Positions 38,650 to 56,128 are shown, counted from the stretch's first letter. The stretch: DNA of 64,000 bases from Gammaproteobacteria bacterium (GCA_021647505.1 JAKIUN010000002.1:54158-118157), one strand, 5' to 3'. The notes: generated by a model not told the origin, from the letters alone. Numbers and translations are program-made.

Positions 38650-39435
38650 TTAAATGGCCGCTGCGACTTCCCGCAGCCGCTGAAGCTGTGATTCCCTACG
38701 CATGACATCCTTCATGGCCCTTTTGAAAAAGGGGCGCAAGGTGGATTTCAGGTGTTTTACCGCCTCACGGGCCGGGATGTTTTTCAGGCAACAGAAGATC
38801 GCCAGTGCATAGGTCACATCAAACTGGGACAGGTAGTTTTCACGTTCGACGGCCGGCCCGGAACAGCTGCCGCAGGATCGAATCCTGGCGGTATTGGCGC
38901 TGTCCGCCATGACCACGCCGAAGCCCATGAACACGGCCAGCAGCTCCGTCACATGAGGCCAGTTTTCTTCGCCGCCGGGCGGGGGCTCGTTGGCCGTGGT
39001 GCCGAGATAGTGGGCCAGGGTATGTGCGAAGTGGGCGATCATGACCTCCGGATCGCGTAGCTGATCCGCACGATAGATGATCGGCAGGGGTTGCGCCGCC
39101 TCCACCGCAATGGGCATCGCTCCCTCCATCGCCCGGACCAGGCCTGCAACCGGCAGGATCCGGAGCGGCAACTCCTCCACGACATCCTCATCCACCAGTT
39201 GACAGGGCCAGTGTTGCATGCTGGCAAAAAACCTGACCCTGTCGAAGATCAATCCGCTCATGCCCTCGGGGCTGGATTCCCGGCCGGGAAAATGTGCGTT
39301 GCTGGGCGTCACCAGGATCGTCTCGTCACGGAAGATCCGTGCATCGAAGTTGCGTAGCGCCCAGGCGAAGCTGTCGAACATCCATTGCACAGTGGCTTCA
39401 TCGAGCAGCTGGGTTGGTTTCAGAAACGGGAACAA
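38650..39435 (-). CDS. hypothetical protein (261 aa)
   Basis: Long ORF with genome-typical GC and codon usage, no recognisable motifs; co-directional and immediately upstream of the hydrolase. Confidence 0.45.
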   Translation of the reverse strand: MFPFLKPTQLLDEATVQWMFDSFAWALRNFDARIFRDETILVTPSNAHFPGRESSPEGMSGLIFDRVRFFASMQHWPCQLVDEDVVEELPLRILPVAGLVRAMEGAMPIAVEAAQPLPIIYRADQLRDPEVMIAHFAHTLAHYLGTTANEPPPGGEENWPHVTELLAVFMGFGVVMADSANTARIRSCGSCSGPAVERENYLSQFDVTYALAIFCCLKNIPAREAVKHLKSTLRPFFKRAMKDVMRRESQLQRLREVAAAI

Positions 39436-39882
39436 GGCATCGCCTCCATGTGGTGAAAGGGCTTGGGGAAGGTCTGCGAAAAAACGGACATGCTGTAGAT
39501 CATACGGGAAGTTTATCCCGGATTCCGCTGCATTTCATCCAGGCTACGGCACCGGCCAGCCACTCGTTGTAGGTGTGCTCCATCAGATCACTGGTGATCG
39601 CTTGTATGGAAAAGGCTCTCGTCCCGAGTCACTGGTCAAGGCGACACAGCCATCCACAGGCCGAAAAATACCGCAATAACACACTGTCACCGGTACAGCA
39701 TTTTCGTTACATTTTTTCCAGTCAGCGATATCGGCGGCAGCGGTATTTTTTCATCTCATTAGGATGCCGAAAGTTTGCTAGACTCTCAGACTCAGGGTAT
39801 GACCGGAGGGGAGGGCGGTAGCAATGCTGCGTAGCCTTCATGTCGCTCCGGTATTTAGTTCGCATTTTCAAGGAAATACACA

Positions 39883-40164
39883 ATGAACAGGAAAGTCATT
39901 GCCCTGGCGGTACTGCTCAGTGTCGCAACGCCTTTGATCAGCCATGCAGGATCGATAAGATCCGCAGAAGAAAATAGGGTGGCGGAGATCGGGCTTGTTG
40001 CCGGGACAGGCCAGGACAGCGTCTTTGAAGAGATCGAGAGCAGCACACTGGAAAAAACGGCCGTCTCTGCGGCGGCTGGGGCTGCCATCGGCTCGGTCTG
40101 GCCGGGCCCCGGCACCGCCATTGGCTTTGTGGTCGGCGGTATCTACGGATTTTTCTTCCGTTAA
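39883..40164 (+). CDS. small secreted protein with C-terminal glycine-zipper hydrophobic segment (93 aa)
   Basis: Signal peptide MNRKVIALAVLLSVATPLISHA; C-terminus AAAGAAIGSVWPGPGTAIGFVVGGIYGFFF (GxxxG repeats). Confidence 0.5.
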   Translation: MNRKVIALAVLLSVATPLISHAGSIRSAEENRVAEIGLVAGTGQDSVFEEIESSTLEKTAVSAAAGAAIGSVWPGPGTAIGFVVGGIYGFFFR

Positions 40165-40194
40165 CCCTCTCTCCTTTCCTTTACAGGGCACAGC

Positions 40195-40944
40195 ATGAAC
40201 ATCAGTTCCCGCTTCAGCGAATTCGGCATGACGGGCGCATTTTTCTGGATTGCGCAGATCATCTATTTCACCCTTGTGCACGACACAGAATTACAACAAC
40301 TGACGCCAGGCTGGATCGCATCACTCAACCACTATCAAACCCTCACCGAGGCCCTGCCACAGACCTTCAAGGACGTCGCCGGTTCCCTGCTTACAGCCTT
40401 TGGCCTCATCGGCATCTTCGTCACCGGCTTGATATTGAATCTGCTCGGTTCCTATTTTTTCCTCTTCGAGGACATCTACCTCAATCGTCACCTGAAAAAA
40501 AACCACGACTGGCTGGACAAGATGGTCAATGCATGCCCTGGTGCCGTCCATGACGACTATTTCAAATTACGCGAAGAATTCGGCGCCAATATTTTCGTTT
40601 CCGCCCGCCAGGGCCTCAAACGCCTTCAGCTCACCGGCTGTTGTACGAGGATGCAGTCTTTCCTGTTTTCCTATATCCATGTCTTCAGCGGCAACGGCTC
40701 ACCAGAAGTACTCAGCGACCATGTGCACCTGTGGCGCACCGCGCGCGCCATCGGCATTACCTTTTGGGTGCTCAGCATCGAGATTCTGATATTTGGCCTA
40801 CATGGCTCGGAATGGATAGCCATACTGCTGGCCCTACTCCTGTTCCTGGTAGCCATTTACACCACGCTGCGTTCCTACAACCGCATGTGCCACACGCTGT
40901 TTACTCTGGCTTGCGCCACCTACAGCAAGCAGCAGGACAAGTGA
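40195..40944 (+). CDS. hypothetical polytopic membrane protein (249 aa)
   Basis: Several predicted TM helices; 30 bp downstream of the small secreted protein gene, likely co-transcribed. Confidence 0.5.
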   Translation: MNISSRFSEFGMTGAFFWIAQIIYFTLVHDTELQQLTPGWIASLNHYQTLTEALPQTFKDVAGSLLTAFGLIGIFVTGLILNLLGSYFFLFEDIYLNRHLKKNHDWLDKMVNACPGAVHDDYFKLREEFGANIFVSARQGLKRLQLTGCCTRMQSFLFSYIHVFSGNGSPEVLSDHVHLWRTARAIGITFWVLSIEILIFGLHGSEWIAILLALLLFLVAIYTTLRSYNRMCHTLFTLACATYSKQQDK

Positions 40945-41072
40945 ACCATAAACATCCCCGGGGCAAGCCTTCTCGCTGATACTCGACTTTCGCTGCGTGA
41001 AAGCGGGGTATTTTCAGAGCAGTGCTAACTGATAGTTCTCATGAATTTTCGTATATTCTTGCCCTTGGTTTT

Positions 41073-41312
41073 TTATGGTTTTTTACATGAGCCCCCTATC
41101 ATCTTTTCATTTCTATGCTTTCCTACCGTCGTTGCAAAATAACCATCTGTCCAAAACTCACCACCCCATAACAGCTTCTTTACATGTGGACACTTCTTGA
41201 ATACCTCTCGAGCGGTTAAGGTCTTGATCATGGCCACTAATTTCACAACACTATACGTCGGTACTACTGAACTAAAAATGAACGTGGTCTTTATCCGTAC
41301 CAATTTCCACAA
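41073..41312 (-). pseudogene. IS200/IS605-family (REP-associated tyrosine transposase-like) TnpA fragment
   Basis: …VVPTYSVVKLVAMIKTLTAREVFKKCPHVKKLLWGGEFWTDGYFATTVGKHRNEKMI… matches the C-terminal half of IS200-like TnpA (PK.SVS..V..IKG.TAR..F...P..KK.LWGG.FWS.GYF..TVG); N-terminal HUH half and true C-terminus missing. Confidence 0.55.
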
Positions 41313-41584
41313 ACTGAACCTAATAACAGTTTTCTATCTCAAGACATATTTCCGACAGCGCTCTGCCAACCCCTTTATCAAAAACTACTCGACGATAACT
41401 AACTGTAAATAGAAAATGATATAGGAGAACTATTACATAGTGGTTCTTATGGATATATTGACTCATCCGCCCACTTTACGCCGCAAGCGGCGGGGAATAA
41501 AACCCAAGAAATTTAGGGATATCACGCGGCAGGAGGGATCGCTCCTACGTGCCGAGAGCTAAGGAACGTACACATTCCTTAGCT

Positions 41585-41611
41585 CCGTAACTGGATATTG
41601 TCGATCAGGCG
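41585..41611. repeat. 27-bp duplicate of the panC 3' coding end (att-like left repeat)
   Basis: ccgtaactggatattgtcgatcaggcg identical to 53622-53648 inside the panC 3' end; followed by an 11-bp-stem hairpin (gagctaaggaa…ttccttagctc). Confidence 0.7.
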
Positions 41612-41709
41612 GGCCGGCCACGGCGAAGATAACCAGCTCAGCAGCAACGCAAGCGCTGCCTGCCTCCCCCTACCCCCTACGGGTTTCTCATAGGAAGTAG
41701 TTTCTGGTA

Positions 41710-41753
41710 CCCTGCATAATCCCTGCATAATCCCTGCATAACCCCTGTATAAC
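41710..41753. repeat. 4 tandem 11-bp repeats (ccctgcataat x2, ccctgcataac, ccctgtataac)
   Basis: Read directly; 107-150 bp upstream of bcsG. Confidence 0.9.
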
Positions 41754-41756
41754 CAA

Positions 41757-41810
41757 GGATTCAGCATTGAAAAGGATTCAGCATTGAAAAGGATTCAGCA
41801 TTGAAAAAGA
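41757..41810. repeat. 3 tandem 18-bp repeats (ggattcagcattgaaaag)
   Basis: Read directly; 50 bp upstream of bcsG ATG. Confidence 0.9.
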
Positions 41811-41859
41811 GCAACTTGTACCTTGTGCTTGTTCCCTTACTTTGTTTTTTTTGGTACTA

Positions 41860-43614
41860 ATGCCAGCAACATCTCGGCCTTTAAAGGAATCTTCTAAAAC
41901 ATCGACTAATTCCAGTTCAAAGGTCACAGAACAGCAGGCTCCCGCGCACTCAGATGCCGTAACGGATCAGAAAAAAGGTTTTCCCTCGACCCTGGACTAC
42001 ATGGGTCTCGGCGCCTGGAATATTTATTTTCTTGCCAAGTTCTTTTTATTCTGGCAGCACTATATCGGCTTTCACCCTTTAGAGAATCTGGCATTCGCCG
42101 CTTTCCTGCTAATGCCCGTCAGATCTGCTACGGGTCGTTTTCTTCGCCAAGTGGTGGCGTTTCCTGCCGGTGTGGCGCTGCTTTACTACGATTCCTGGCT
42201 GCCTCCAGTGGCGCGGGTGCTCAATCAAGCCGACAACATGAAGGGGTTTAGTTCTACCTATCTTCTTGAGCTTGTGGGACGCTTTTTCGATGTACAGGTA
42301 GTAGCGGCACTGATTCTGATTTGGGCTGTCACGCGGATTATTTCCCGGTATTTGCGTATCGGAACGCTGGTTACCGTTACGCTTGCCTCCATGGTGATCT
42401 GGAGTACCCTGAAACAAGAGGATGTTTCCATGCCGTCTGTCTCCGTTACCAGTATCTCTCCGGCTGTTTTTGGCGCGGAGGCTACACCTTCTTCCGCCAA
42501 AAACGGCGATAGCCAAGATTCACTGAATGCAGTGCTGGAAAACTTTTATCACGAGGAAGCGAAGCGAAAAGTGAACTTTATAGCGCCAGCATCGGCTGCC
42601 GCGCCGTTCGATGTATTATTTCTGCACATTTGCTCACTTTCCTGGGATGATCTTGAGTTTACCGGGCTGAGCACGCACCCGCTGTTCGACCGTTTTGATC
42701 TGCTTTTCACCAACTTCAACAGTGCATCCTCCTACAGTGGCCCCGCCATGGTGCACCTGCTGCGAGCCACTTGTGGCCAATCCAGTCACCACGATCTGTA
42801 CCAGACAGCGCCGGGACACTGCTATCTGTTCCAAAATCTTGCCCAAGCCGGCTTTTCACCCCAGGTTGCACTGAATCATGACGGTCATTTTGACGGCTTT
42901 CTTGAGGTAATGCGGGAGCAAGGCAAGCTGAACGCCACACCCCTGTCACTGGATGGGATAGAAATCGCACAGCGATCTTTCGACGACTCGCCGATTCATG
43001 CTGATCTGCAAGTATTGAACCGCTGGCTGGAGCAACGCCAGCAAAGCATGAAGCCCAAGGTTGCCGCCTACTACAATACCATCAGCCTGCATGACGGCAA
43101 CCGCCTGGTCACCGGCCCCGGCAGCAAACTGAGCAGCCTGAAAAGCTATCCCCAGCGGCTGCGGACGTTACTGGATGATCTTGAGGCATTCCTGCGCCAA
43201 GTCGAGGCATCAGGGCGCCAGATGGTGGTAGTGCTGGCTCCGGAACACGGCGCGGCCCTCCGCGGAGACCGGATGCAGATCGCGGGTATGCGCGAGATTC
43301 CCAGCCCGGCCATTACCCGAGTGCCGGCTGCCATCGCAGTGATTGGCCCCAACCTGAAACGCAAGGGTAGGCAGGTACGAAACGATGCTCCGGTAAGCTA
43401 TCTGGCCATCAGCCATGTGATCGAGCAGGTGTTGCAGGAAGATGTCTTCGGTAACAGCAGTTTTGATCCCGCCAGGCTGGTGACGAACCTGCCGCAAACG
43501 GCCTTCGTTGCCGAGAACGAAGGCACGGTGGTGATGCGTTATGGTGACCAATACTACCTGCGCCTCGGAAAAGAAGACTGGAGCAAGTATCCCGTAGCGG
43601 AACTCCGGCCATGA
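41860..43614 (+). CDS. bcsG: cellulose biosynthesis protein BcsG (phosphoethanolamine transferase-like)
   Basis: Strong similarity to E. coli BcsG along full length (GLGAWNIYFLAKFFLFW, FHPLENLAFAAFLLMP, NFYHEEAKRK, FDVLFLHICSLSWDDLE, NFNSASSYSGPAMVHLLRATCGQSSH, YNTISLHDGN, MVVVLAPEHGAALRGDRMQIAGMREIPSPAIT). ATG at 41860 chosen; upstream TTG possible. Confidence 0.85.
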   Translation: MPATSRPLKESSKTSTNSSSKVTEQQAPAHSDAVTDQKKGFPSTLDYMGLGAWNIYFLAKFFLFWQHYIGFHPLENLAFAAFLLMPVRSATGRFLRQVVAFPAGVALLYYDSWLPPVARVLNQADNMKGFSSTYLLELVGRFFDVQVVAALILIWAVTRIISRYLRIGTLVTVTLASMVIWSTLKQEDVSMPSVSVTSISPAVFGAEATPSSAKNGDSQDSLNAVLENFYHEEAKRKVNFIAPASAAAPFDVLFLHICSLSWDDLEFTGLSTHPLFDRFDLLFTNFNSASSYSGPAMVHLLRATCGQSSHHDLYQTAPGHCYLFQNLAQAGFSPQVALNHDGHFDGFLEVMREQGKLNATPLSLDGIEIAQRSFDDSPIHADLQVLNRWLEQRQQSMKPKVAAYYNTISLHDGNRLVTGPGSKLSSLKSYPQRLRTLLDDLEAFLRQVEASGRQMVVVLAPEHGAALRGDRMQIAGMREIPSPAITRVPAAIAVIGPNLKRKGRQVRNDAPVSYLAISHVIEQVLQEDVFGNSSFDPARLVTNLPQTAFVAENEGTVVMRYGDQYYLRLGKEDWSKYPVAELRP

Positions 43615-44540
43615 ATCATGAGAGAGACAACATCCCCGGGAGCGAGCGGCTGCGGGAAGATATTTGTGGCCTGCTGCGCAACACCCAGGGACTAAGCAAC
43701 TACCACGAACTGCGCCACTGCGATGAGATCCAGGAAATACTGCAGCGCTGGCCCTTGTTGGATCTGAAAACAGAGCAGCAAACTCGATCTGCCAATTTGC
43801 CGTCAGCCCATAAACGGCCTGTCAACGTGACCCTGGTCACCGGTGCCGTAAGTGGCGTGGGAACCACGACCGTGGTGGCCAACTTGGCCAGGGCGTTGCA
43901 GCAGCAAGGCAGGAAAGTGATGGTGGCAGATCTTTCTTGCCGCCAAGATCTGTATTTTCACCTGGGCGGGGCGTCTGCAGTACCCGCTAACGATAGCGAT
44001 GCGGGCCATCGTATTTCCTTGCTCTCTGACCCAGAGGATCCTGGTGATGTCCAGGATGTCCCACGGGCAGCATCGCCCTGGTTGGCAGACCAGCTATCAA
44101 CACTCCCGGTCAATGTGATCGACCACTTGTTGATCGATTGCCCATGGCATGCCCAGGTTGCGTTTCAGCAGGCATGCGCGTTGGCCGGACGTATCCTGCT
44201 GGTGACCACCGCCGAGCAGCCCATCACTTTCCATCAGATTGGCCTCGCCCTGGCCCATGTGACTTCAGCGAGCCAGCCGGACACCATCAACACTCACCTG
44301 TTGATCAACCGGTTCAATTTTGCCGTACCGCTGCAACGGGATATCCATACGCTGTTGCACAGCAGGCCCCCCATCGCGCTGGTGCCAGCAGAAATACCCC
44401 ACGAAAGCCGCATTGCCGACAGCCTCGCCCGGCTGCGAGACATTGTGTCTCTCGTTCCTGGTTGCGCGGCGACCCACAGGTTCCACCTCTTGGGAAATTG
44501 GTTGATTGATCAAGCCACACAGCAGGGAAAGACGGTTTAG
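43611..44540 (+). CDS. bcsQ: cellulose synthase operon protein BcsQ (MinD/ParA-family ATPase) with ~65-aa N-terminal BcsR-like extension
   Basis: Deviant Walker A (TLVTGAVSGVGTTTVVANLARAL) and YhjQ-like body; N-terminal 60-70 aa not part of canonical BcsQ, possibly a fused BcsR. Confidence 0.75.
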   Translation: MNHERDNIPGSERLREDICGLLRNTQGLSNYHELRHCDEIQEILQRWPLLDLKTEQQTRSANLPSAHKRPVNVTLVTGAVSGVGTTTVVANLARALQQQGRKVMVADLSCRQDLYFHLGGASAVPANDSDAGHRISLLSDPEDPGDVQDVPRAASPWLADQLSTLPVNVIDHLLIDCPWHAQVAFQQACALAGRILLVTTAEQPITFHQIGLALAHVTSASQPDTINTHLLINRFNFAVPLQRDIHTLLHSRPPIALVPAEIPHESRIADSLARLRDIVSLVPGCAATHRFHLLGNWLIDQATQQGKTV

Positions 44541-47104
44541 TGAAAAATGGCAGCCCTGCTGAAGGAACAGCGATACCGATGAATTCTGACTCAAATCGCC
44601 ATTCCAACACCGTCAGCCACCGGTCACTGTTGTTCCGGATGCCCCGCGGCTTTTTCCGGGAGCGAATCGCACCACTGTTCCCCCATGTGGATTTTCGCAA
44701 CCTCCGGCCCACAGATCTAATCCGCATCCTGCTGCAGGCACTATGGCTGGCAGTGTTTCGGCAAAACCCCCCGTCATTCCGGCCATCTGTGCGTGTCCGC
44801 TGGCTTCGCCAGCGCATGAAACAGGGGGGCAAGCGCCTGATCCGGCTGATACCCGGCGGCTTACACCAAAAACTGTCTTGGACGCACTTTCGTAAACCAT
44901 TAGAGGCTATCGCCGGACATGATCTGCGTTGGAGCCGACCGCTAGGTCTGGCCGCCTACCTGCTAGCGGCCGGCATCCTCGTGATTGCCATCATTACCCC
45001 GTTCAGCTTGCTCAGCCAGCTGGTGTTCATGGTGCTACTGTGGTTGATCGCCCTCTCGATCCAGCGTATTCCCGGAAATCTGGCCACCTTGATACTGGTC
45101 GTACTCTCTGTCATCGCCTCTAGCCGGTATCTCTGGTGGCGCATTAACTATACCCTCAACTGGGATGACCTCATTGACCTGACGTTGGGCCTTGGCCTGC
45201 TGGCCGCCGAGTTGTTTGCCTGGCTGGTGCTGATACTTGGCTATTTTCAGACCGCCCGACCCTTGCAGCGCCGACCGGTGGAACTTCCCGCAAATCCAGC
45301 GCAGTGGCCAACCGTCGACGTATTCATTCCAACCTACAATGAACCACTGGAGGTGGTTAAACCGACGGTATATGCCGCATTGGGCATGGACTGGCCCAAG
45401 GAAAAGCTCAACGTCTATCTGCTGGATGATGGACGGCGACCGGCATTTCGCCAGTTCGCACAGGAAGCAGGTGTCATTTACATGACACGCCCGGACAACA
45501 GTCATGCCAAGGCAGGCAATCTCAACCATGCCCTGGCCAGAAGCAAAGGTAAATTCGTCGCTATTTTTGATTGCGACCATGTCCCCACCCGCTCTTTCCT
45601 ACAGGTGAACATGGGCTGGTTTCTGCGTGATCCCAAACTGGCGTTAATGCAAACACCTCATCATTTCTTCTCTCCAGACCCTTTTGAGCGAAATCTGAAC
45701 AATTTCCGTACCGTGCCCAACGAAAACGCGCTTTTCTACGGACTCGTGCAAGGTGGCAACGACCTGTGGAACGCTACCTTTTTCTGTGGCTCCTGCGCAG
45801 TGCTTCGGCGCAAGCCGTTGGAAGAGATTGGCGGTATTGCCGTAGAAACCGTCACTGAAGATGCACATACCGCCCTGCGTCTGCACCGTCTCGGCTACAA
45901 TTCCGCCTATCTCAAGATCCCCCAGGCAGCCGGGCTGGCAACCGAGAGTTTCGCGGCCCACGTCGGTCAGCGCATCCGCTGGGCGCGCGGCATGGCACAG
46001 ATACTCCGCCTCGACAATCCGCTACTGGGCAAGGGCCTGAGCATATGGCAGCGTCTGTGCTACGGCAACGCGATGCTGCATTTCCTGTCAGGGATACCCC
46101 GTCTGGTCTTTCTCAGTGCGCCACTCGCATTTTTGCTCCTGCATGCCTACATTATCTACGCACCGGCGCTGCTGATACTGCTCTATGTGGCGCCACATCT
46201 CATTCACGCCAGCATCACCAACTCCCGTATCCAGGGAAAATACCGCTACTCTTTCTGGGCCGAGATCTACGAAACCGCCCTCGCCTGGTATATTGCCCGT
46301 CCGACCACCACGGCGCTCATCGCCCCTCACAAGGGCAGCTTCAATGTCACCGCCAAAGGCGGCCTGATCGCCGAAGAACATTTCGACTGGCGTATCTCCA
46401 AGCCATTTCTTGTCCTGATTGTACTGAATCTGCTGGGTATTATCGTAGGACTGGGACGTTTGGTTGGAGGCCCTGACCATGAAGTGGGCACTGTACTTCT
46501 CAACCTTGCCTGGGCCAGTTACAACCTGCTGATTCTGGGGGCCGCCCTTGGCGTGGCCATGGAAGCCCGGCAGGTGCGCCGTGCACATCGTGTCGATTTC
46601 CTTTTGCCAGCGGCACTGCTACTGCCAAACGGTCAGCACCTGCTGGCAGAGGTACAGAACTTCTCGCTTGACGGCATGAGTCTGTCTTGCAAGGAAGACG
46701 GTGATCTGAAAATCGGCGCATCCGTGCAGGTGTCATTACGTCCTGGTCTGCGCAGTTATGCTTTCCCGGCCACCTTGGTGCGCCTTGAAGGCAACTCACT
46801 TGGATTACAGTTCCAGAAATTGACGCCCCAACAGGAAGCAGACCTGGTGAAATGCACCTTTGGGCGGGCGGATATCTGGATGGACTGGGCCGCCAACAGG
46901 CCACATGACCGTCCTCTTCGCAGTCTAAAAGCAGTGATGTTGAAAGGCATGGAGGGCTATCAGCGCCTGTTTCATTGGGCCCTTCCATCCCATGCCCAGC
47001 CTCTGATCAGGCAGACACGCAGCCTGCTTAAGTATTTCTCCACCTATCTGCCGCGCCGTCCAGCGGTTCAGTCCCATCGCGCGACCTTAAGGAAGGCCCC
47101 ATGA
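44540..47104 (+). CDS. bcsA: cellulose synthase catalytic subunit BcsA (UDP-forming), C-terminal PilZ domain
   Basis: GT2 motifs (DDG, DCDH, TED, QRIRWARG) and PilZ (RRAHRV…DGMSLS); start either GTG at 44540 or ATG at 44579. Confidence 0.9.
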   Translation: MKNGSPAEGTAIPMNSDSNRHSNTVSHRSLLFRMPRGFFRERIAPLFPHVDFRNLRPTDLIRILLQALWLAVFRQNPPSFRPSVRVRWLRQRMKQGGKRLIRLIPGGLHQKLSWTHFRKPLEAIAGHDLRWSRPLGLAAYLLAAGILVIAIITPFSLLSQLVFMVLLWLIALSIQRIPGNLATLILVVLSVIASSRYLWWRINYTLNWDDLIDLTLGLGLLAAELFAWLVLILGYFQTARPLQRRPVELPANPAQWPTVDVFIPTYNEPLEVVKPTVYAALGMDWPKEKLNVYLLDDGRRPAFRQFAQEAGVIYMTRPDNSHAKAGNLNHALARSKGKFVAIFDCDHVPTRSFLQVNMGWFLRDPKLALMQTPHHFFSPDPFERNLNNFRTVPNENALFYGLVQGGNDLWNATFFCGSCAVLRRKPLEEIGGIAVETVTEDAHTALRLHRLGYNSAYLKIPQAAGLATESFAAHVGQRIRWARGMAQILRLDNPLLGKGLSIWQRLCYGNAMLHFLSGIPRLVFLSAPLAFLLLHAYIIYAPALLILLYVAPHLIHASITNSRIQGKYRYSFWAEIYETALAWYIARPTTTALIAPHKGSFNVTAKGGLIAEEHFDWRISKPFLVLIVLNLLGIIVGLGRLVGGPDHEVGTVLLNLAWASYNLLILGAALGVAMEARQVRRAHRVDFLLPAALLLPNGQHLLAEVQNFSLDGMSLSCKEDGDLKIGASVQVSLRPGLRSYAFPATLVRLEGNSLGLQFQKLTPQQEADLVKCTFGRADIWMDWAANRPHDRPLRSLKAVMLKGMEGYQRLFHWALPSHAQPLIRQTRSLLKYFSTYLPRRPAVQSHRATLRKAP

Positions 47105-49392
47105 AGACAGGACGATTACTCTCCTTTTTAACCTTGTTCCTCTTAACCTTATTCCTCTGTCTGTGGAGCATGCAGATACCTGCCAAGACGACGCCGGCGG
47201 GTGCAGCACAGCAGGACACGCCGACAAACTCGCAGAATTTGCCGGCAACACAACGCAGCTATACCTTTGAGGAACTCGGCGCCAGCCACCCCCTGACCCT
47301 GAGCGGCTCCAGCGGTAGCATGGCGCTTTCTTTCGGTGTACACGGTGATGAACTGGTCACTGCGGCCCGGGCGCGAATTACCTATACCTACTCGCCATCA
47401 TTGCTGCCGCATCTTTCGCACATCAAGGTAATACTGAACGATGAGGTACTGGCAACGCTGTCCCTGCCTCAGGAAGAGGCAGGGCAACCAGCCACCCGTG
47501 AAATCGCTCTTGACCCACGCTTTCTGTCCGATTTCAATCGCCTGAGATTCGAGATGGTAGGTCATTACCAGACCGGATGCGAAGACCCGTTCCACTCCAG
47601 TCTGTGGGCACGCATTAGCAATCAGAGTGAATTATTGCTTGAGATTCAGCCAGTAAAGCAGGCAGTGAACCTTGCCGACTTCCCCGAGCCTTTCTTCGAC
47701 CCGAGAAACCTGCATCGCCTGTCTCTGCCTTTCGTGTTTGCTGATGGGGCGGGTCACGAAACCCTGGCGGCAGCGGCAGAACTTGCCTCCTGGTTTGGCA
47801 TCCAGGCCGCCTGGCGTGGCGCCCGTTTCGATGTGCTGATTGACCAGATGCCGGAACGCTATGGCATGGTATTCGCCACCAACGAAAAGCGGCCTGCTTT
47901 TCTCGCACAGCAGGCGCCGGTGACTGGCCCCACGCTTGCCCTCATTGAGCACCCGAACAACTCCTGGGGCAAATTGTTGCTAATCATGGGGCGCAACGAA
48001 GCAGACCTGCGCATGGCGGTGCATGGACTCGTGCTGGGGGAGGCCACCCTTTCCGGCACCACCGTCGAAATCCGCGACTTTGTGCTGCTGAAGGAGCGCA
48101 AACCCTACGATGCTCCCAGCTGGATACGTCTGGACCGTCCCGTGAAGCTCGGTGAACTGATCGAAAACCGCCAGGAGTTACAGGCTGCCGGACGCCAACC
48201 TGGCGCCATCGACATCGAATTGCGTATCCCTGATGACCTGTTTACCTGGCGCAGCGCCGGTATTCCGCTGAAACTGAAATACCGCTACTCCGCACCACTG
48301 AAGGAAGATGAATCACGCCTTACCGTGAAGCTCAACGACCAGTTTCTCACTGCCTTCAATCTGGCGGATGGCCGAGGAGGACTCAAGGAGGGAGTCACCA
48401 TTCCCCTGTTTGGCGAGCTGTTGAGCAACACCAATGAAGTGCTGTTGCCCTCATTTGGCCTACGTCACCGCAACCAGTTGCAGTTGCAGTTTTCCTTTGG
48501 CCACCACCAAAATAGTGGCTGCGGCAGTTACAACCTGGATAACATGCAAGCCGCCATCGACGATGACTCGGTGATCGATCTCCGCGGTTTCTCCCACTAC
48601 ACCGCACTGCCAAATTTACGTTTCTTTGCCAATTCCGGCTACCCCTTCACCCGTCTGGCAGACCAGTCTGAAACCGTTGCGGTCATCGCTGCGGAACCTC
48701 AGGCTGATGAGATCAGCACTCTGTTGACACTGGCCGGTCGCCTGGGTGAATCCACAGGGTATCCCGCTACCCGATTGCAGGTTGTGCCACCAACCGCAAC
48801 GGAAAAACTTCAGAACCGGGAGATACTAATTATCGGCAGCCGCGCCGCCCAGCCTCTGATGGAACACTGGGGAGTGGATCCCGCATCCAAACTGGGTGAG
48901 CAGGGAACTATCAGCACCCCCGCGCTGGCGGTAAACCCACGCTATGACTGGTTCGGTTTCGGCACAGCCCCGATTTTGTCACCGATCACGCAAATCACTA
49001 CCCGCGCCAATGGGCCATTGGCTGCAATTGTAGCCTTTGAATCTCCGCTCAGCGCCGGCCGCAGCGTTGTAGCGTTCATGTCGAACATCCCTGGTAGCTT
49101 GTTGTCGCTACTTGATGCGCTGGAAAACCCGGATACCGCATTAGCAATAAATGGCAGTGCGGTTTTTGTCCGTGACGGAAAGGTAACCAGCAGTAGCAGC
49201 ACCTTGGTGGGCCAAAGCTATTTTGTTGGCGACCTGTCCCTGTGGAGCCGTGTTCACTTTTTCTTTTCACGCCATCCGCTACTGCTGATTTTCCTTACTG
49301 TCGGAGCAACCCTGATCATGGCGTTCGCCCTGTGGCGTACCCTCAAGGGCGTCGCCCGGCGACGCATGGAGGTGGGAGAAAGGAGCCCATGA
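47101..49392 (+). CDS. bcsB: cellulose synthase regulatory (periplasmic) subunit BcsB
   Basis: 763 aa, signal peptide, C-terminal TM anchor, BcsB-family similarity; ATGA overlaps with bcsA stop and bcsZ start. Confidence 0.85.
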   Translation: MKTGRLLSFLTLFLLTLFLCLWSMQIPAKTTPAGAAQQDTPTNSQNLPATQRSYTFEELGASHPLTLSGSSGSMALSFGVHGDELVTAARARITYTYSPSLLPHLSHIKVILNDEVLATLSLPQEEAGQPATREIALDPRFLSDFNRLRFEMVGHYQTGCEDPFHSSLWARISNQSELLLEIQPVKQAVNLADFPEPFFDPRNLHRLSLPFVFADGAGHETLAAAAELASWFGIQAAWRGARFDVLIDQMPERYGMVFATNEKRPAFLAQQAPVTGPTLALIEHPNNSWGKLLLIMGRNEADLRMAVHGLVLGEATLSGTTVEIRDFVLLKERKPYDAPSWIRLDRPVKLGELIENRQELQAAGRQPGAIDIELRIPDDLFTWRSAGIPLKLKYRYSAPLKEDESRLTVKLNDQFLTAFNLADGRGGLKEGVTIPLFGELLSNTNEVLLPSFGLRHRNQLQLQFSFGHHQNSGCGSYNLDNMQAAIDDDSVIDLRGFSHYTALPNLRFFANSGYPFTRLADQSETVAVIAAEPQADEISTLLTLAGRLGESTGYPATRLQVVPPTATEKLQNREILIIGSRAAQPLMEHWGVDPASKLGEQGTISTPALAVNPRYDWFGFGTAPILSPITQITTRANGPLAAIVAFESPLSAGRSVVAFMSNIPGSLLSLLDALENPDTALAINGSAVFVRDGKVTSSSSTLVGQSYFVGDLSLWSRVHFFFSRHPLLLIFLTVGATLIMAFALWRTLKGVARRRMEVGERSP

Positions 49393-50564
49393 TGCGAAAT
49401 ACCAGAGAAACACTGACTCGACAATATAGAGTGGTTGCTGCACTAGGGTGTTCCCTGTTGCTGCTGGCCTGGCTAACGCCGGCTGCGGCTGCGGCCTGCC
49501 CGCCCTGGCCTTTGTGGCAAAGCTTCCAGTATCATTTGCTGAGCGAAGATGGCAGAGTGATCGACTACCATACTCCCGCGCAGCATTCCACTTCCGAGGG
49601 GCAGTCCTATGCACTGTTCATGGCGCTGGTAAACAATGACCAGAAGCTTTTCGACCTGCTGCTGCGCTGGACCGAGAACAACCTCGCACACGGCAGTCTC
49701 GAAGCCCATTTGCCTGCCTGGCAGTGGGGACGCAAGAAAGATGGCGACTGGGGAGTGATCGATACCAACAGCGCCAGCGATGCAGACCTCTGGATAGCAT
49801 ACGGCCTGGCCGAGGCAGGACGCCTCTGGCGCAGACCAGACCTGACGAAAATGGCCAAATCCCTGGCCAGGCGCATCCTGAAGGAGGAAAGCCAACGCCT
49901 GCCCGGCCTGGGATTGATGCTGCTTCCTGGGATCCGGGGGTTTGCCCTGCAAGCGGGGCGCTGGCGCCTCAACCCCAGCTATCTACCACTACAATTGCTG
50001 CGGCGGATGGAGACATTGCAACCAGGCGCAGGCTGGCGGGAAATACTGGAAAACACGGTTACCATGCTGCACGCCAGCGGTAACGGCTTCATCCCAGACT
50101 GGATCATCTATGATGCCCGGCTTGGCTTCCTTCCCGATGAGGTGCATGGCGCCAGTGGCAGCTATGGCGCCATTCGCAACTATTTGTGGGTTGGAATGCT
50201 CTCACCGGACGAACCCCTGCGGCTGCCGCTACTACAGCTTATGCGCCCCATGGCGGAACGGGTGAAACAACTCGGTGCCCCTCCCCGTAACATCAATACC
50301 AAAACCGGGCAATCCAGCGGTCTTGGATCGCCCGGGTTCTCCGCATCCCTGATGCCACTGCTGAAAGCCCTGAAGTACCCCCAGGAACTCGCACTGCTAC
50401 AAGGCCAGACACAGCGGATTCTGCAACATCCGAACCACTATTATGATCAGGTTCTGGCGCTATTTGCCTTGGGTTGGATGGAAGGACGCTACCAATTCGG
50501 CCGCGATGGCAGGCTGCAACCCCTCTGGAAGTCATCATGTACGGAAAACTCAAGTCATTCCTGA
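49389..50564 (+). CDS. bcsZ: endo-1,4-beta-glucanase BcsZ (glycoside hydrolase family 8)
   Basis: Signal peptide then GH8 core (SEGQSYALFMALV, DADLWIAYGL); start reset to MMRNTRE (RBS GGAGAAAGGAG upstream) rather than ORF-tool start inside bcsB. Confidence 0.85.
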   Translation: MMRNTRETLTRQYRVVAALGCSLLLLAWLTPAAAAACPPWPLWQSFQYHLLSEDGRVIDYHTPAQHSTSEGQSYALFMALVNNDQKLFDLLLRWTENNLAHGSLEAHLPAWQWGRKKDGDWGVIDTNSASDADLWIAYGLAEAGRLWRRPDLTKMAKSLARRILKEESQRLPGLGLMLLPGIRGFALQAGRWRLNPSYLPLQLLRRMETLQPGAGWREILENTVTMLHASGNGFIPDWIIYDARLGFLPDEVHGASGSYGAIRNYLWVGMLSPDEPLRLPLLQLMRPMAERVKQLGAPPRNINTKTGQSSGLGSPGFSASLMPLLKALKYPQELALLQGQTQRILQHPNHYYDQVLALFALGWMEGRYQFGRDGRLQPLWKSSCTENSSHS

Positions 50565-53419
50565 TACTGCTGCTCGCCGGTACTAGCCCTTGCTTTGGAG
50601 ACAGCAACGTTTTTTCCACACTGTTGGAACGGGCGGAATTCTGGCACTCCCTTGGCCGCAATGACTTTGCCGGGCAGGCGCTGAAAAAAGCCATACGAGC
50701 CGAACCGGATAATCCTGCCGGCTTGGTGTTGCAAGCTTTTTTGGATCTTGATCTGGACAGACGCCCGGCGGCCGAGAAGCTGCTCCAGCAGCTGCGACAA
50801 CACCATCCTAAAGCCCCCCAGACCATGGTGTTGGAACAAGTACTGGATATCACCGGCCGGAGCAGAACACAGCTCCACAAGGCACGCCTGGCGGTGCGTC
50901 TGGGCAGGCGGCAGGAAGCGCTGCAAGTTTTTCGTCAGCTGTTCGCGGGAACCCCGCACCCCTCTCCGCTGGCGTTAGAGTACTGGGGGCTCCTGGGACG
51001 ACAGGCAGTCCACCGGGAAGAGGCCATGAAAGGTTTGCAAACACTGGTGCGCACCTATCCCGGCAATCTGCGCTACCGGATGGCGCTGGCCCGGCAACTG
51101 GCCAGAAAAGATCCTCCTGCGCCTGAAAGTATCGAAACTTTCATCGAACTCAGTCAGTACTCCCAACTCCGCCGCGAAGCCAGGTCAGCCTGGCGCAACG
51201 CCGTCCTGGCGCTGCCGGCAGAGCATGATGCTCTACCGGCACTGCGGCAATACATCGAACAGGCCCCAAAAGACAGCGGTGTAGCACAGCGAATCCAGAA
51301 AATCGAGTCTGCGATCATTGCCCAAAAGAAACGGGATCGCGATCCCGTGCATGCAGGCTTGTTGCGCGGCATAACACTCATGGAAAAAGGCCGTCTGGAT
51401 GCCGCCGATCCACTGCTGGGGGCCGCCGTCAAAAAATGGCCCGGGGAGGTAAGGCCCGTAGGCGCCATAGGACGGTTACGGCTGAAACAGGCTCGTTACC
51501 GCGAAGCTATTTCCTGGTTCCAGCGGGCGCTGGAACTGGAACCGGACAATGCCAGCAAATGGCGCTCCCTGTTGCATGCCGCAAACTACTGGGGATTCAT
51601 CAAACAGGCGAAGTCGGCGCTACAACGAGGTGATTTGCACCAGGCGGATGCAATATCACGCAAGGCCGTCGCGCTCGATGCGCAAGAAGCGTATGGCATC
51701 GCTCTGCTCGCCCAGGTACAGTCGCAACTAAAAGACACCCATGAAGCAGAGCGGCTTTATCGCCAAGCACTGACCGTTGACCCGCAAAGTAGCACGGCAC
51801 TGCGTGGGTTGATCAATCTTTATGCCGATAATCAGCGTCTGGATGATGCATTTGCATTGCTTGATGAGCTGACATCCTCTCAGCAGCAGACACTGGGGAA
51901 ATCCTACACGACACTGCGGGCCTCTCTGCTGCAAAAACAAGCCGATCAGCATCTCCGGGACGGCGCCCCGGAGATGGCAATCACCGCCTTGCGGCAGGCC
52001 GTTGACTTCGATCCGGAGAATCCCTGGCTGCGCTTTGATCTGGCTGATCTGCTGCTGGTGGGAAACGAGATGGAACAGGCTGTCGAGGTGTTCGAGACGG
52101 GCCTCGCCCTCGCGCCACAGAATCCGCAAATGCGCTATGCCTATGCATTGCTGCTTTCCCGCCTGGGCAGGGAAACGGACGCACTGGAAATACTGGATGA
52201 ACTGCCGAGTAACCAGCTGCCGCCAAACGTACTGGCCTACCGCAATCGCCTGCAACACAAGCAGCAGATACAGCAAAGTCCCAGGCTTTTCTCCGGACTA
52301 CATATGAGGTTCCGCGATGCAACCGGAGGGCTTTCCAGCCTGACGTCCCATGAACTGCCCATAGAGGCACAGTGGCCATTGTACCAAGGACAAATGTTCG
52401 CACATGTTGCCCCCGTACACCTGGATGCAGGCAAACTTGACTTGGGCAACCCGGATATCCGGAGCCTTTTTGGCGCAGGCGCCTTGTGCCTGAAAAACTG
52501 CGCTGACTCACCACTGGTGCAGATAGAGAGAGGCACATCCTTTGCTATCGGATACCGAGATATCAACTGGCGTGCAGATCTGGGCCACTCACCTTTAGGC
52601 TTTCCCATTTCCCACCTGCTTGGGGGTGTGGAAATCGATGGCGACCTGCGGGGTGTTAGCTGGAGCCTGGGACTCTCCCAGCGACCGGTCACCAGCACTC
52701 TACTGAGTTATGCCGGCATGGAGGATGCGGAAACCGGCAAGGTCTGGGGGGGGGTTGTTGCCACTGGCCTGCATCTCGGACTCAGCGGGGATCAAGGTGA
52801 TTCATACGGGTTCTGGGGCAGTTTTGGTATTCATAACCTGCACGGGGAAGGGGTTGCTGACAACTTTCGGTTGCGGGCTTTGAGCGGCATTTACTGGCGT
52901 TTACTCAACCGGGAGAATACCCAGCTGCGTGGCGGATTAAACATAATGGCCTTGCGTTTTGACAAAAACATGGGTGAGTTCACTATCGGTCACGGCGGTT
53001 ACTATAGTCCCCAGTCCTATGTTTCGCTTTCACTGCCGATGAGTTTTTATGGGCGCAGGGATCGCTGGTCATGGGAGTTACGCGGCTCAGTTTCCTACTC
53101 GGTTTCCCACTTCGACCGCAGCCCCTACTTTCCTGAAGCCCCGAGTCTACAGGCCAAAGCCGAACGGCTGGAAGCAATAACCGGGATCACGCCATATTAT
53201 GGTGCCTACACCAGCTCCGGCGCTAGCTACTCCTTCAGTGGAGCGGTGGAATATCGGCTCAATCCCCACCTGCATATGGGCACGAAAATGAAGATCGAAC
53301 GCGCCGACTTTTATGCGCCAGACCACTTCCTTCTCTACTTCCGCTACAGCGCCCACCCCCACCTGGGTCCAATGCCCTTGCATCCGCGTCCGACAGTCCC
53401 TTATTCCGACGTTAACTGA
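50537..53419 (+). CDS. bcsC: cellulose synthase operon protein BcsC (TPR periplasmic scaffold + C-terminal outer-membrane beta-barrel)
   Basis: Signal peptide MYGKLKSFLILLLAGTSPCFG, multiple TPR repeats, C-terminal BcsC barrel region (GGYYSPQSYVSLSLPMSFYGRRDRW); shorter than E. coli BcsC (fewer TPRs). Confidence 0.85.
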   Translation: MYGKLKSFLILLLAGTSPCFGDSNVFSTLLERAEFWHSLGRNDFAGQALKKAIRAEPDNPAGLVLQAFLDLDLDRRPAAEKLLQQLRQHHPKAPQTMVLEQVLDITGRSRTQLHKARLAVRLGRRQEALQVFRQLFAGTPHPSPLALEYWGLLGRQAVHREEAMKGLQTLVRTYPGNLRYRMALARQLARKDPPAPESIETFIELSQYSQLRREARSAWRNAVLALPAEHDALPALRQYIEQAPKDSGVAQRIQKIESAIIAQKKRDRDPVHAGLLRGITLMEKGRLDAADPLLGAAVKKWPGEVRPVGAIGRLRLKQARYREAISWFQRALELEPDNASKWRSLLHAANYWGFIKQAKSALQRGDLHQADAISRKAVALDAQEAYGIALLAQVQSQLKDTHEAERLYRQALTVDPQSSTALRGLINLYADNQRLDDAFALLDELTSSQQQTLGKSYTTLRASLLQKQADQHLRDGAPEMAITALRQAVDFDPENPWLRFDLADLLLVGNEMEQAVEVFETGLALAPQNPQMRYAYALLLSRLGRETDALEILDELPSNQLPPNVLAYRNRLQHKQQIQQSPRLFSGLHMRFRDATGGLSSLTSHELPIEAQWPLYQGQMFAHVAPVHLDAGKLDLGNPDIRSLFGAGALCLKNCADSPLVQIERGTSFAIGYRDINWRADLGHSPLGFPISHLLGGVEIDGDLRGVSWSLGLSQRPVTSTLLSYAGMEDAETGKVWGGVVATGLHLGLSGDQGDSYGFWGSFGIHNLHGEGVADNFRLRALSGIYWRLLNRENTQLRGGLNIMALRFDKNMGEFTIGHGGYYSPQSYVSLSLPMSFYGRRDRWSWELRGSVSYSVSHFDRSPYFPEAPSLQAKAERLEAITGITPYYGAYTSSGASYSFSGAVEYRLNPHLHMGTKMKIERADFYAPDHFLLYFRYSAHPHLGPMPLHPRPTVPYSDVN

Positions 53420-53597
53420 ATCGAGTCAGACCGGGCTCAAAAAAACCGATATTTCGAGAGCTGAAATGATGGGCAATACAAATGAAGAAACGAACAATTG
53501 GGAAGAAAACCTCACCAGCAGCGGCAGCACTATCTACAGCAACGAATTCACCATCCACGTCTTCAGCGACAACGGGAAAAACGAATGTGTGAGGGAA

Positions 53598-54470
53598 TCA
53601 CGCTGGAGCAGCTCCGTGACGCCGTAACTGGATATTGTCGATCAGGCGCGTCTCACCCAGCCAGGTGGCGGTGAGGATGACCAACGCCGTGTCTGCCGTC
53701 GTGGCAGGCTGCAGATCATCGGCACGGCACACGGTAAAATATTCCGGACAGAAACCAGCCTCTCTCAGAGTCTTCTCGGCATCGGATTCGATAGCGGCAA
53801 TGTCTCCCTCGCCGGATATCAGCCGCTCTTTGGCGGTCTGCAATGTCCGGTACAAGGCGGCAGCCCGTTGCCTTTCTTCCGCGCTAAGGTACTGATTGCG
53901 CGAACTCATGGCCAGGCCATCGGCCTCGCGCACGGTCGGTACACCGATGATCTCGACGGGGAAGCACAATTCCTCGGTGAAACGGCGGATCACCAACAAT
54001 TGCTGGTAGTCCTTTTCACCGAACACCGCCACATCCGGCTGCACCATGTTGAAAAACTTGGCCACCACAGTAGCCACACCGACGAAATGACTGGGGCGAA
54101 ACACGCCACAGAGGATGTCGGAAATACCCGGCACCATCACCCGCGTCACATTCTTGAAGCCCGCCGGATACATCTCTTCCTGTGCAGGGAAAAACAGCAA
54201 ATCCACACCGCTCTCCATCAGTTTTTTCTGGTCGACTTCGAAGGTGCGCGGATAGTGCTCGAAGTCGCCGCCACTGGCATCGCTGAACTGCATGGGATTG
54301 ACGAAGATGCTGACCACCACATGATTCGCCTGCCGTCGCGCCGTCTCGACCAGTTGCAGATGGCCGGCATGCAGGTTGCCCATGGTCGGCACCAGGGCGA
54401 TGCGCTCACCGGCCTGCCGCCACAGACTGACTCGCCGACGCAGGTCGGCAATGGTGGTAATACTCTGCAT
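53598..54470 (-). CDS. panC: pantoate--beta-alanine ligase
   Basis: PanC signature (ALVPTMGNLHAGHLQLV, HIS motif), 290 aa. Confidence 0.9.
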   Translation of the reverse strand: MQSITTIADLRRRVSLWRQAGERIALVPTMGNLHAGHLQLVETARRQANHVVVSIFVNPMQFSDASGGDFEHYPRTFEVDQKKLMESGVDLLFFPAQEEMYPAGFKNVTRVMVPGISDILCGVFRPSHFVGVATVVAKFFNMVQPDVAVFGEKDYQQLLVIRRFTEELCFPVEIIGVPTVREADGLAMSSRNQYLSAEERQRAAALYRTLQTAKERLISGEGDIAAIESDAEKTLREAGFCPEYFTVCRADDLQPATTADTALVILTATWLGETRLIDNIQLRRHGAAPA

Positions 54471-54472
54471 AG

Positions 54473-55267
54473 CTAGAAACTATGCGCGCTGGAGGGAAAG
54501 CTGCCGCCCTTGACGGCCTGCACATAGGCGGCCACGGCGGCGGAGATGTCGCCACTATCGGCGAGAAAGTCGTGACTGAAGCTGGGCCGCTTACCCGGCG
54601 TGATGCCCAGCATGTCGTACAACACCAGCACCTGCGCATCCACATCCGGCCCGGCGCCGATGCCGATCACCGGGATTTCCACGGCACGAGTGATCTCGGC
54701 GGCCAGAGTCGCAGGTACACATTCCAACAACAGCATGTCGGCACCGGCGGCCTGCATGGCGCTGGCATCACTGATCATATCCAGGGCCCCGGCCTCGTCG
54801 CGGCCCTGCACCCGGTAGCCGCCCTGCTTGTGCACCGACTGCGGCAACAGACCCAAGTGCGAACACACCGGGATACCTCGCGCCGCCAAGGCCTGCACGG
54901 TTTCCAGCAGGACGCTGCCGCCCTCCAGTTTCACCATCTGCGCACCGCCTTCCTTCATCAGACGGCCGGCACTGTGCATAGCCTGCTCGGGCGTGGCATC
55001 GGCCATGAAGGGCATGTCCACCATCAGCAGTGCCTTTTCGCTGCCGGTGCGCACCGCACGGGCATGGTAGATCATCTCGTCGAGGCTCACCGGCAGGGTG
55101 GTTTCCTGGCCCTGGATCACCATCCCCAGAGAATCGCCCACCAGCAGAATTTCTACTCCGGCGGCGTCCAAAATATGCGCAAAACTGGCGTCATAGGCGG
55201 TCAGACAGGCAATTTTCTCGCCCCCCTGCTTCATCTTTTTCAACCGTGTCGTGGTGATACGATTCAT
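54473..55267 (-). CDS. panB: 3-methyl-2-oxobutanoate hydroxymethyltransferase
   Basis: PanB signature (KIACLTAYDASFA, LLVGDSLGMV). Confidence 0.9.
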   Translation of the reverse strand: MNRITTTRLKKMKQGGEKIACLTAYDASFAHILDAAGVEILLVGDSLGMVIQGQETTLPVSLDEMIYHARAVRTGSEKALLMVDMPFMADATPEQAMHSAGRLMKEGGAQMVKLEGGSVLLETVQALAARGIPVCSHLGLLPQSVHKQGGYRVQGRDEAGALDMISDASAMQAAGADMLLLECVPATLAAEITRAVEIPVIGIGAGPDVDAQVLVLYDMLGITPGKRPSFSHDFLADSGDISAAVAAYVQAVKGGSFPSSAHSF

Positions 55268-55933: not shown

Positions 55934-55946
55934 GGTATGTAAATCC

Positions 55947-56128
55947 GGATCAGGGCACTTCTGTTAATCGCTCGCGGCCTCTGGCTCGCAGCCATGTAGG
56001 GTGGGCACGTTTTTTGTGCCCACGCGGTTGGCGCATATTCCACGTGGGCATGAAAAGCCTGCCCACCCTACCAGGTTTTTTGTGGGGAGCCGTCAGGATC
56101 AGGGTACGTCTGTCAATCGCTCGCGGCC
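55947..56128. repeat. full copy of REP/MITE-like double-hairpin element bracketed by 33-bp direct repeats
   Basis: Core catgtagggtgggcacgttttttgtgcccacgcggttggcgcatattccacgtgggcatgaaaagcctgcccaccctaccaggttttttgtggggagccgtcag flanked by ggatcagggcacttctgttaatcgctcgcggcc (55947-55979) and ggatcagggtacgtctgtcaatcgctcgcggcc (56096-56128). Confidence 0.8.

Follow-up and report, generated by a model that had tools for sequence, protein, structure and literature searches.

In Escherichia coli, the e14 element and phage 21 integrate in the 3′ end of a protein-coding gene, icd, and carry a replacement 3′ end. Cis-mobilizable elements (CIMEs) and mobilizable genomic islands (MGIs) are non-autonomous, att-flanked islands that are mobilized in trans. 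In Campbell-type single-crossover integration, a non-replicating circle enters the chromosome via a cloned homologous fragment, as suicide plasmids do. Here we analyze a locus that shares traits with each of these systems: a bacterial cellulose synthase (bcs) operon next to panC, a vitamin B5 gene, in a 64,000-nt stretch of a gammaproteobacterial metagenome-assembled genome (MAG; GCA_021647505.1), hereafter the window. The bcs cassette, ~11.9 kb long, is accessory and sits at the convergent junction of panC and orf249, a conserved gene for a 249-aa predicted membrane protein. It is bracketed by two oppositely truncated, non-identical copies of this whole junction. As to its origin, we lean toward integration of Campbell type, or a duplicative insertion equivalent to it, after which homologous recombination in the flanks would have spread the cassette.

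Empty sites, occupied sites and the duplicated junction

A PanC scan of GTDB species representatives returned relatives of ≤65% identity only, none of them with bcs genes less than 10 kb from panC; a large protein collection contained PanC relatives at 74–100% identity, and their contigs were compared with the window. Empty sites, in which panC is followed by a convergent orf249 without bcs, were found at L088/L089, L083, L084–87, L097, L098, L101 and L106, lineages with 73–89% nucleotide identity in the flanks. Past orf249, these sites share their next genes (a 261-aa, a 279-aa and a MacB-type gene) with the left side of the island in the window; position 10904 of L088 aligns to window position 40927 and position 10903 to window position 53568. 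L093 (89–90% nucleotide identity in the flanks) is likewise without bcs, and a deletion took its orf249. A preliminary description, made from the window sequence alone, had taken bcs for an island at this site and proposed comparing the region downstream of panC in relatives. Bcs is indeed absent there, panC abuts the gene that is found left of the island here, and the empty sites bear out an insertion.

Both junctions of an occupied site recur in L082/L090 (GCA_054043645.1; 97.6% nucleotide identity) and in L091/L092 (UOFU01000382 and a Logan assembly; 95.6% over 12,109 nt). The occupied set thus comprises three sequenced lineages including the window (95.6–100% nucleotide identity), known from independent assemblies. 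A fourth bcs-occupied lineage probably exists, because a homologue (P0242, 87%) of a 53-aa open reading frame (ORF) that crosses the right junction and the PanC homologue P0004 are each encoded on a 3214-bp Logan contig. In a further 80 gammaproteobacterial loci, bcs genes were absent from the 10 kb to either side of panC.

The features of the occupied site are, in window coordinates:

40195–40944, plus strand: orf249, complete, in the left junction copy; the convergent neighbor of panC at empty sites
40981–41512, minus strand, ends approximate: decayed IS200/IS605-family element, with Y1_Tnp (PF01797) at 41073–41312 (E = 7.6e-14)
41513–41578, minus strand: intergenic remains of repetitive extragenic palindromic (REP) type and most of a 13-pair palindrome, collinear with L083, L097 and L098
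41579–41639, minus strand: left copy, panC 3′ pseudogene fragment (ELVIFAVAG / RLIDNIQLRS*), which holds one 27-nt repeat (41585–41611)
41640–42000, plus strand: left end of the cargo and upstream region of bcsG, with two tandem arrays
42001–53419, plus strand: bcs operon, from Pfam and NCBIfam matches and gene calls
42001–43614, plus strand: bcsG (PF11658, CBP_BcsG, 1.6e-203; TIGR03368, 1.4e-201)
43611–44540, plus strand: bcsQ (E = 2.5e-15), with a weakly BcsR-like N-terminus
44579–47104, plus strand: bcsA, with GT2 and PilZ domains
47101–49392, plus strand: bcsB (E = 2.1e-207)
49395–50564, plus strand: bcsZ (GH8, E = 2.6e-58)
50537–53419, plus strand: bcsC (BCSC_C, E = 4.9e-108)
53420–53552, plus strand: right end of the cargo, 133 nt, no homology detected
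53553–53584, plus strand: right copy, orf249 remnant; the L088 alignment resumes at 53568
53585–53597, no strand: 13-nt spacer between panC and orf249, identical to the spacer of the L088 empty site
53598–54470, minus strand: panC, intact, 290 aa (Pfam Pantoate_ligase, E = 9e-105), with the right 27-nt repeat at 53622–53648

In the left junction copy, a complete orf249 is accompanied by a REP-type intergenic region and by ~60 nt from the 3′ end of panC, which has a short IQLRS* tail. In the right copy, orf249 begins only at nt 480 and is internally deleted; the 13-nt spacer comes next, and panC is complete, with a long RRHGAAPA tail. A segment of the chromosome is therefore present as a direct duplication whose copies are truncated at opposite ends. 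Once the IS200-family element is disregarded, the left flank matches the REP-type empty sites collinearly all the way from panC, across the intergenic region, to the stop of orf249. Its intergenic remains contain the motif CGTAGGAGCGATCCC at 41535–41549, which occurs once in the window. The panC remnant is followed by CTCGGCACGTAGGAGCGATCCC…, a sequence that stands, among the fetched loci, only directly downstream of panC (L083) or of a panC remnant (L091, L092 and L096), and a close variant of this element follows panC in L097 and L098. The left copy is a displaced panC 3′ end, with its own stop (...IDNIQLRS*) and its own downstream intergenic sequence, collinear with the DNA after panC in L083, L097 and L098.

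At the right junction, the orf249 remnant covers nt 480–503 of the gene (22/23 identical to L083), where its homology ends, and is joined to the terminal ~20 nt of an L088-type orf249 tail, with the 11-nt microhomology AGCGACAACGG at the point of fusion. The RRHGAAPA tail of the working panC need not have been supplied by the island, because empty sites in L088 and L093 encode a counterpart, RRHC(S/A)APV. Orf249 itself matched no family in Pfam and NCBIfam. Public annotations call the 53-aa ORF mentioned above at 53466–53627 (plus strand), across the right junction and antisense to the panC stop. It is composed of the cargo tail, the orf249 stub and the spacer, its likeness to orf249 is limited to an IHVFS(D/G)NG stub, and it belongs to no family, with only two homologues in 5.8 billion proteins. 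This ORF is probably spurious and not a gene, yet a handy marker of the occupied right junction.

The most conspicuous part of the duplication is a 27-mer, CCGTAACTGGATATTGTCGATCAGGCG, present in exactly two plus-strand copies (41585–41611 and 53622–53648) in direct orientation. No further copies were found in the window with up to three mismatches allowed, and in 100 dinucleotide shuffles of the window a pair of copies never arose. The preliminary description was thus right about a perfect 27-bp direct repeat, and several details given with it require correction. Instead of being the final 27 bp of panC, the 27-mer specifies R-L-I-D-N-I-Q-L-R at codons 275–283 of 290, after which RHGAAPA and the stop follow. 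The indel beside it, given as 6 bp, is 8 bp once the shared agctccgt is aligned (AGCTCCGT[GACGCCGT]AACTGG vs. AGCTCCGTAACTGG). Nor is the duplication limited to a 27-bp att core, since it belongs to the larger, degenerate copy of the panC/orf249 junction that includes a piece of the neighboring gene. Membership in a larger duplication had been named in the preliminary description as an outcome that would count against it.

Homology between the two copies runs past the 27-mer into panC (GAGCTGGTTATCTTCGCCG...), with deletions of 5 nt and 6 nt. Read in the direction of panC, the left copy is …GAGCTGGTTATCTTCGCCG(Δ5)TGGCCGG(Δ6)CC-CGCCTGATCGACAATATCCAGTTACGG-AGC-TAA, a decayed panC 3′ end of ~60 nt that encodes ELVIFAVAG…RLIDNIQLRS* and has its own TAA stop at 41579–41581. 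It stops abruptly within panC; the ~60-nt remnant corresponds to ~95 nt by the numbering of the intact gene. The 27-mer is the longest perfectly identical block between the two junction alleles. Rather than a discrete att core, it appears to be the patch in which the ~60-nt panC 3′ pseudogene is best preserved. The flanking repeat is not maintained in the bcs-bearing relatives: its two copies agree at 26/27 positions in L082/L090, and the left copy of L091 has ~5 substitutions in the 27-mer and an adjacent 19-nt deletion that removed half of the palindrome.

The cargo between the copies encodes BcsA (GT2 and PilZ domains), BcsB, BcsC and BcsZ together with the accessory proteins BcsG and BcsQ, which places it among bacterial cellulose synthase operons. 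The gene content first proposed, bcsG-bcs(R)Q-bcsA-bcsB-bcsZ-bcsC with upstream repeat arrays, was confirmed, the BcsR part corresponding to a weak N-terminal resemblance. A comparison of composition with the flanks, also proposed at that stage, revealed a lower GC content at third codon positions (GC3) in the six bcs genes than in 34 other window ORFs (0.633 ± 0.020 vs. 0.710 ± 0.046; Mann–Whitney p = 1.6e-4), a modest shift. Among named BcsG homologues, the closest belong to Thiolapillus sp. and to a hydrothermal-vent metagenome, and BcsG relatives include P0123 (81%) and P0128 (70%). In Thiolapillus L107 (BcsG 72% identical), the same six-gene operon in the same order lies beside unrelated genes at another locus. 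A foreign origin of bcs is indicated by its low GC3, its different location in L107 and its absence near the 80 other panC loci.

Two tandem arrays precede bcsG. One consists of 3.9 copies of an 11-bp unit (CCCTGCATAAT, 41710–41752) and is present, with variants, in all three bcs-bearing lineages. The other consists of 3.1 copies of a 17-bp unit (AAGGATTCAGCATTGAA, 41755–41807) that is single copy in L090 and L091, and therefore represents a recent expansion in the window lineage. The arrays may be regulatory sites. An Rfam scan of 40000–54600 (E up to 0.1), arrays included, returned no family, and the region upstream of bcsG in the window has no similarity to that of L107.

Possible routes of integration

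Integration by a single crossover is suggested because the insert is flanked by a direct duplication, each copy of which is truncated at the opposite end. In the account that we favor, one reciprocal crossover would have joined the chromosome with DNA from a related strain on which bcs was accompanied by a few hundred bp of this junction. The 27-mer, with its conserved RLIDNIQLR codons, would be the likely exchange site because it is the longest perfect identity between the junction alleles, and no dedicated integrase would be required. The cassette and its immediate flanks would then have passed between diverged lineages by homologous recombination in panC and orf249. For this account we infer a circular intermediate, dependence on RecA and the position of the crossover.

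The flanks of the cassette are mosaic. Along panB and panC, we counted the sites at which the window sides with L088 and L093 together and not with L083, and those with the opposite pattern:

55202 to 53898: 104 L088/L093-like sites, 36 L083-like sites
53875 to 53633: 3 L088/L093-like sites, 29 L083-like sites
53625 onwards (from the 27-mer): 16 L088/L093-like sites, 1 L083-like site

The 5′ part of the window panC is thus L088/L093-like, the segment 53633–53875 is L083-like and the tail is again L088/L093-like. The haplotype switches at the 27-mer from L083-like (29:3) to L088/L093-like (16:1), and the left copy has the opposite polarity. Such a pattern would fit an L083-like block that formerly ran through the junction without a break and that the island now divides at the 27-mer. 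An island imported with its immediate flanks into a different backbone would also fit. A scheme in which the long RRHGAAPA tail is native and the left copy wholly foreign was dropped, as L083-like sequence occupies the 250 nt upstream of the right 27-mer.

Several observations weigh against single-crossover integration followed by spread. The circular form and the donor genome are unobserved, and the account offers no primary source for a bcs molecule that bears part of the junction. Perfect identity over 27 bp is near the lower limit for RecA-mediated exchange. The breakpoint signal in orf249, in which the window and L088 are 92.2% identical over nt 1–480 and 83.9% beyond while L088 and L083 are ~90% identical in both parts, is weak (Fisher p = 0.01–0.04, uncorrected). 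The haplotype switch at the 27-mer is not specific to the island and is seen among relatives as well. Among the PanC relatives P0004–P0014, three tail types (RRH..AP., IQ(F/L)QR and LRLRRD) occur with both haplotypes of the preceding ~90 residues, in every combination, which points to frequent recombination at the RLIDN codons; these may therefore be a general breakpoint in these vent lineages. Finally, an integrase acting in trans would be compatible with a 64-kb window of a MAG.

An extension of single-crossover integration, which we entertain tentatively, would make bcs an integrase-free “homology cassette” that permanently carries a few hundred bp of the panC/orf249 junction and moves by RecA-dependent loop-out and re-insertion. 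With each cycle, sequence from the most recent host would replace part of the portable copy, and the two flanking copies would therefore be different alleles. If true, this would constitute a general route for biofilm operons among vent Thiolapillus-like lineages without mobile-element machinery.

The original interpretation of the repeats was attL and attR, formed by site-specific recombination in panC. In its explicit form, a tyrosine or serine recombinase, either lost from the element or acting in trans as for CIMEs and MGIs, would have recombined an attP that carries the panC 3′ end with attB, the 27-mer being the core. We regard this as unlikely, even though the layout of the locus is that of a reciprocal exchange, as in attL/attR, with DNA bearing another panC 3′ end. 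The perfect 27-bp direct repeat lies at the 3′ end of a gene that is itself intact, a displaced 3′ remnant stands at the far end, relatives have empty sites, and sequence affinity in panC switches at the 27-mer. An empty site in relatives, an intact 290-aa target and a differing composition are all features of integrase-borne islands. However, no tyrosine or serine recombinase is encoded in the island or adjoins it. Pfam scans of all large ORFs across the 64-kb window detected no integrase or other recombinase, the gene calls of L090 and L091 contained none, and the island lacks integrase, excisionase and relaxase genes in all three sequenced lineages, as does the window. The absence of an integrase that had been noted from the sequence is thereby upheld for the 64-kb window, and for the island in the relatives. 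Furthermore, homology is not bounded by the 27-mer, the orf249 stub at the far junction is not what precise excision would pick up, and the repeat decays freely in relatives. A 20-mer core had no match among IMG/VR viral contigs, and our literature search found nothing on panC as an integration site. A site-specific integrase is unsupported.

Alternatively, bcs and the duplicated junction could be ancestral, with repeated loss by recombination between the junction copies. Exchange between the panC copies would produce a short-tail, REP-type site such as L083, and exchange between the orf249 copies a long-tail site with a 13-nt spacer such as L088; each of these kinds of empty site does have its counterpart in the window, the first in the left copy and the second in the right, and L093 documents that the junction undergoes deletions. 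The distribution of bcs makes this scenario improbable nonetheless. The operon is restricted to a tight cluster (at least 95.6% nucleotide identity), and the six lineages farther off, with flank identities as low as 73%, are all empty. Distant lineages are already REP-type (L098) or tight (L084 and L101), so that these kinds of junction are older than the cluster. Had the 3′ part of orf249 in L088 come from a pseudogene copy, unusual divergence would be expected in it; it shows none. Both the distinct GC3 of bcs and its position at another locus in L107 speak for acquisition instead of loss.

We give equally little credence to one-sided (homology-facilitated illegitimate) recombination or to two separate events. 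In the one-sided version, a linear fragment from a donor with bcs in orf249 was anchored in panC and joined illegitimately ~95 nt inside the recipient panC; in the two-event version, a local tandem duplication of the junction preceded an unrelated insertion of bcs. Both would account for the abrupt start of the right copy at orf249 nt 480 and the abrupt end of the left copy in panC, and a 113-nt palindromic element elsewhere in the window (55980–56092) is also bracketed by a 32–36-nt imperfect target duplication. They require, however, an unobserved donor with bcs in orf249 or two coincident events at one site, and alone leave differing alleles with a perfect 27-mer unexplained. A chance repeat or an assembly artefact, conceivable insofar as the source is a MAG, can be dismissed in view of the shuffled controls and the recurrence of both junctions in independent assemblies from other samples.

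Transposon remnants, palindromes and rearrangements near the cassette

Next to the left copy lies a hairpin (41556–41585), a 13-pair palindrome, which had been presented as the original panC terminator. We reject this assignment: the palindrome lacks a T-run, a terminator scan makes no call there, and it is lineage-specific, being found only in the window and L090 and missing from L091 and all empty sites.

The IS200/IS605-family insertion sequence (IS) element in the left flank contains a tnpA remnant (41073–41430, minus strand) with a frameshift and in-frame stops, and the ends of the element are hairpin-forming. It is present in the window and L090 and not in L091/L092; it is a later insertion that split the left junction copy. 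An end sequence of this element (41479–41513) recurs at L088 18181–18216. This remnant was rejected as the agent of the bcs insertion because of its decay, its position outside the cargo and its absence from L091. The locus does not qualify as an IS or composite transposon, the decayed IS200-family tnpA outside the cargo being the sole transposase, and terminal inverted or direct repeats at the cargo ends did not exceed shuffled controls.

Beyond panC to the right, the window continues with panB, a deoxynucleoside kinase gene, folK and pcnB. Between the kinase gene and folK (55944–56128) stands the palindromic element of ~113 nt (55980–56092), which resembles a REP doublet forming a hairpin (REPIN). 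Its arms are at 55996–56027 and 56040–56071 (GTAGGGTGGGCACG…), and the bracketing 32–36-nt imperfect direct repeats are 89% identical. L088 has the 36-mer once and no REPIN-like element at that site; copies of the element occur at L088 2970–3075 and L001 989–1094. The REPIN-like element is the second case in the window, after bcs, of an insertion with a long and imperfect target duplication on its two sides.

Other changes affect the surroundings of the junction in relatives. Downstream of panC in L093 (10066–10316), orf249, a 92-aa gene and two cytochrome-like genes are deleted, and ~12 nt resembling the orf249 tail remain. The panC/orf249 junction is a rearrangement hotspot beyond the bcs insertion alone. 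L083 (3093–5275) and L088 (12366–14465) carry Cornifin-like and multihaem-cytochrome-like genes between the 261-aa gene and the pair formed by the 92-aa gene and orf249. Only ~760 bp are found at the corresponding place in the window (39435–40195), and these genes have therefore apparently been lost in the window lineage.

Significance and relation to described systems

The locus provides a natural example of a whole exopolysaccharide operon, of phosphoethanolamine-cellulose type, gained at a housekeeping-gene junction in uncultured hydrothermal-vent sulfur oxidizers, with empty and occupied sites both sampled and without mobile-element machinery. It suggests that biofilm capacity is strain-variable in this group and exchanged by homologous recombination; a literature search on Thiolapillus with cellulose found nothing relevant. 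It also holds a caution for genome scans, in that a short, att-like perfect repeat at a gene 3′ end can be the best-conserved patch of a larger, decayed duplication. The understanding of integration mechanisms is unchanged unless a cycle of excision and re-integration is demonstrated.

In its gene content, the operon resembles E. coli-type bcs operons with bcsG, as BcsG, BcsQ, BcsA, BcsB, BcsZ and BcsC are all encoded. It differs from these in that bcsG heads the same operon instead of belonging to a divergent bcsEFG unit, and in that no bcsE or bcsF was found; the order in L107 is the same as in the window.

As in e14 and phage 21, a direct repeat of the target 3′ end flanks the insert, the gene is intact, a decaying 3′ remnant lies on the far side and homology extends beyond a minimal core. 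Unlike in these elements, integrase, phage and integrative and conjugative element (ICE) genes are absent and the cargo is a single biosynthetic operon; the repeat includes a neighboring gene and an intergenic region and is thus a piece of the host junction, not an att site. With CIMEs and MGIs, the locus has in common that an integrase-less island lies between direct repeats at a conserved gene, whereas no cognate ICE or integrase was identified here and the repeats are long, degenerate and host-derived. The likeness to Campbell-type integration lies in the direct duplication, whose left copy is without the 5′ part of panC and whose right copy is without the 5′ part of orf249, and in a process that needs no site-specific enzyme and is reversible by recombination between the repeats. 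In contrast to suicide-plasmid integration, the event was natural, its copies are different alleles, and neither circle nor donor was observed. Overall, the case is one of an accessory operon gained at a core-gene junction, a known kind of event.

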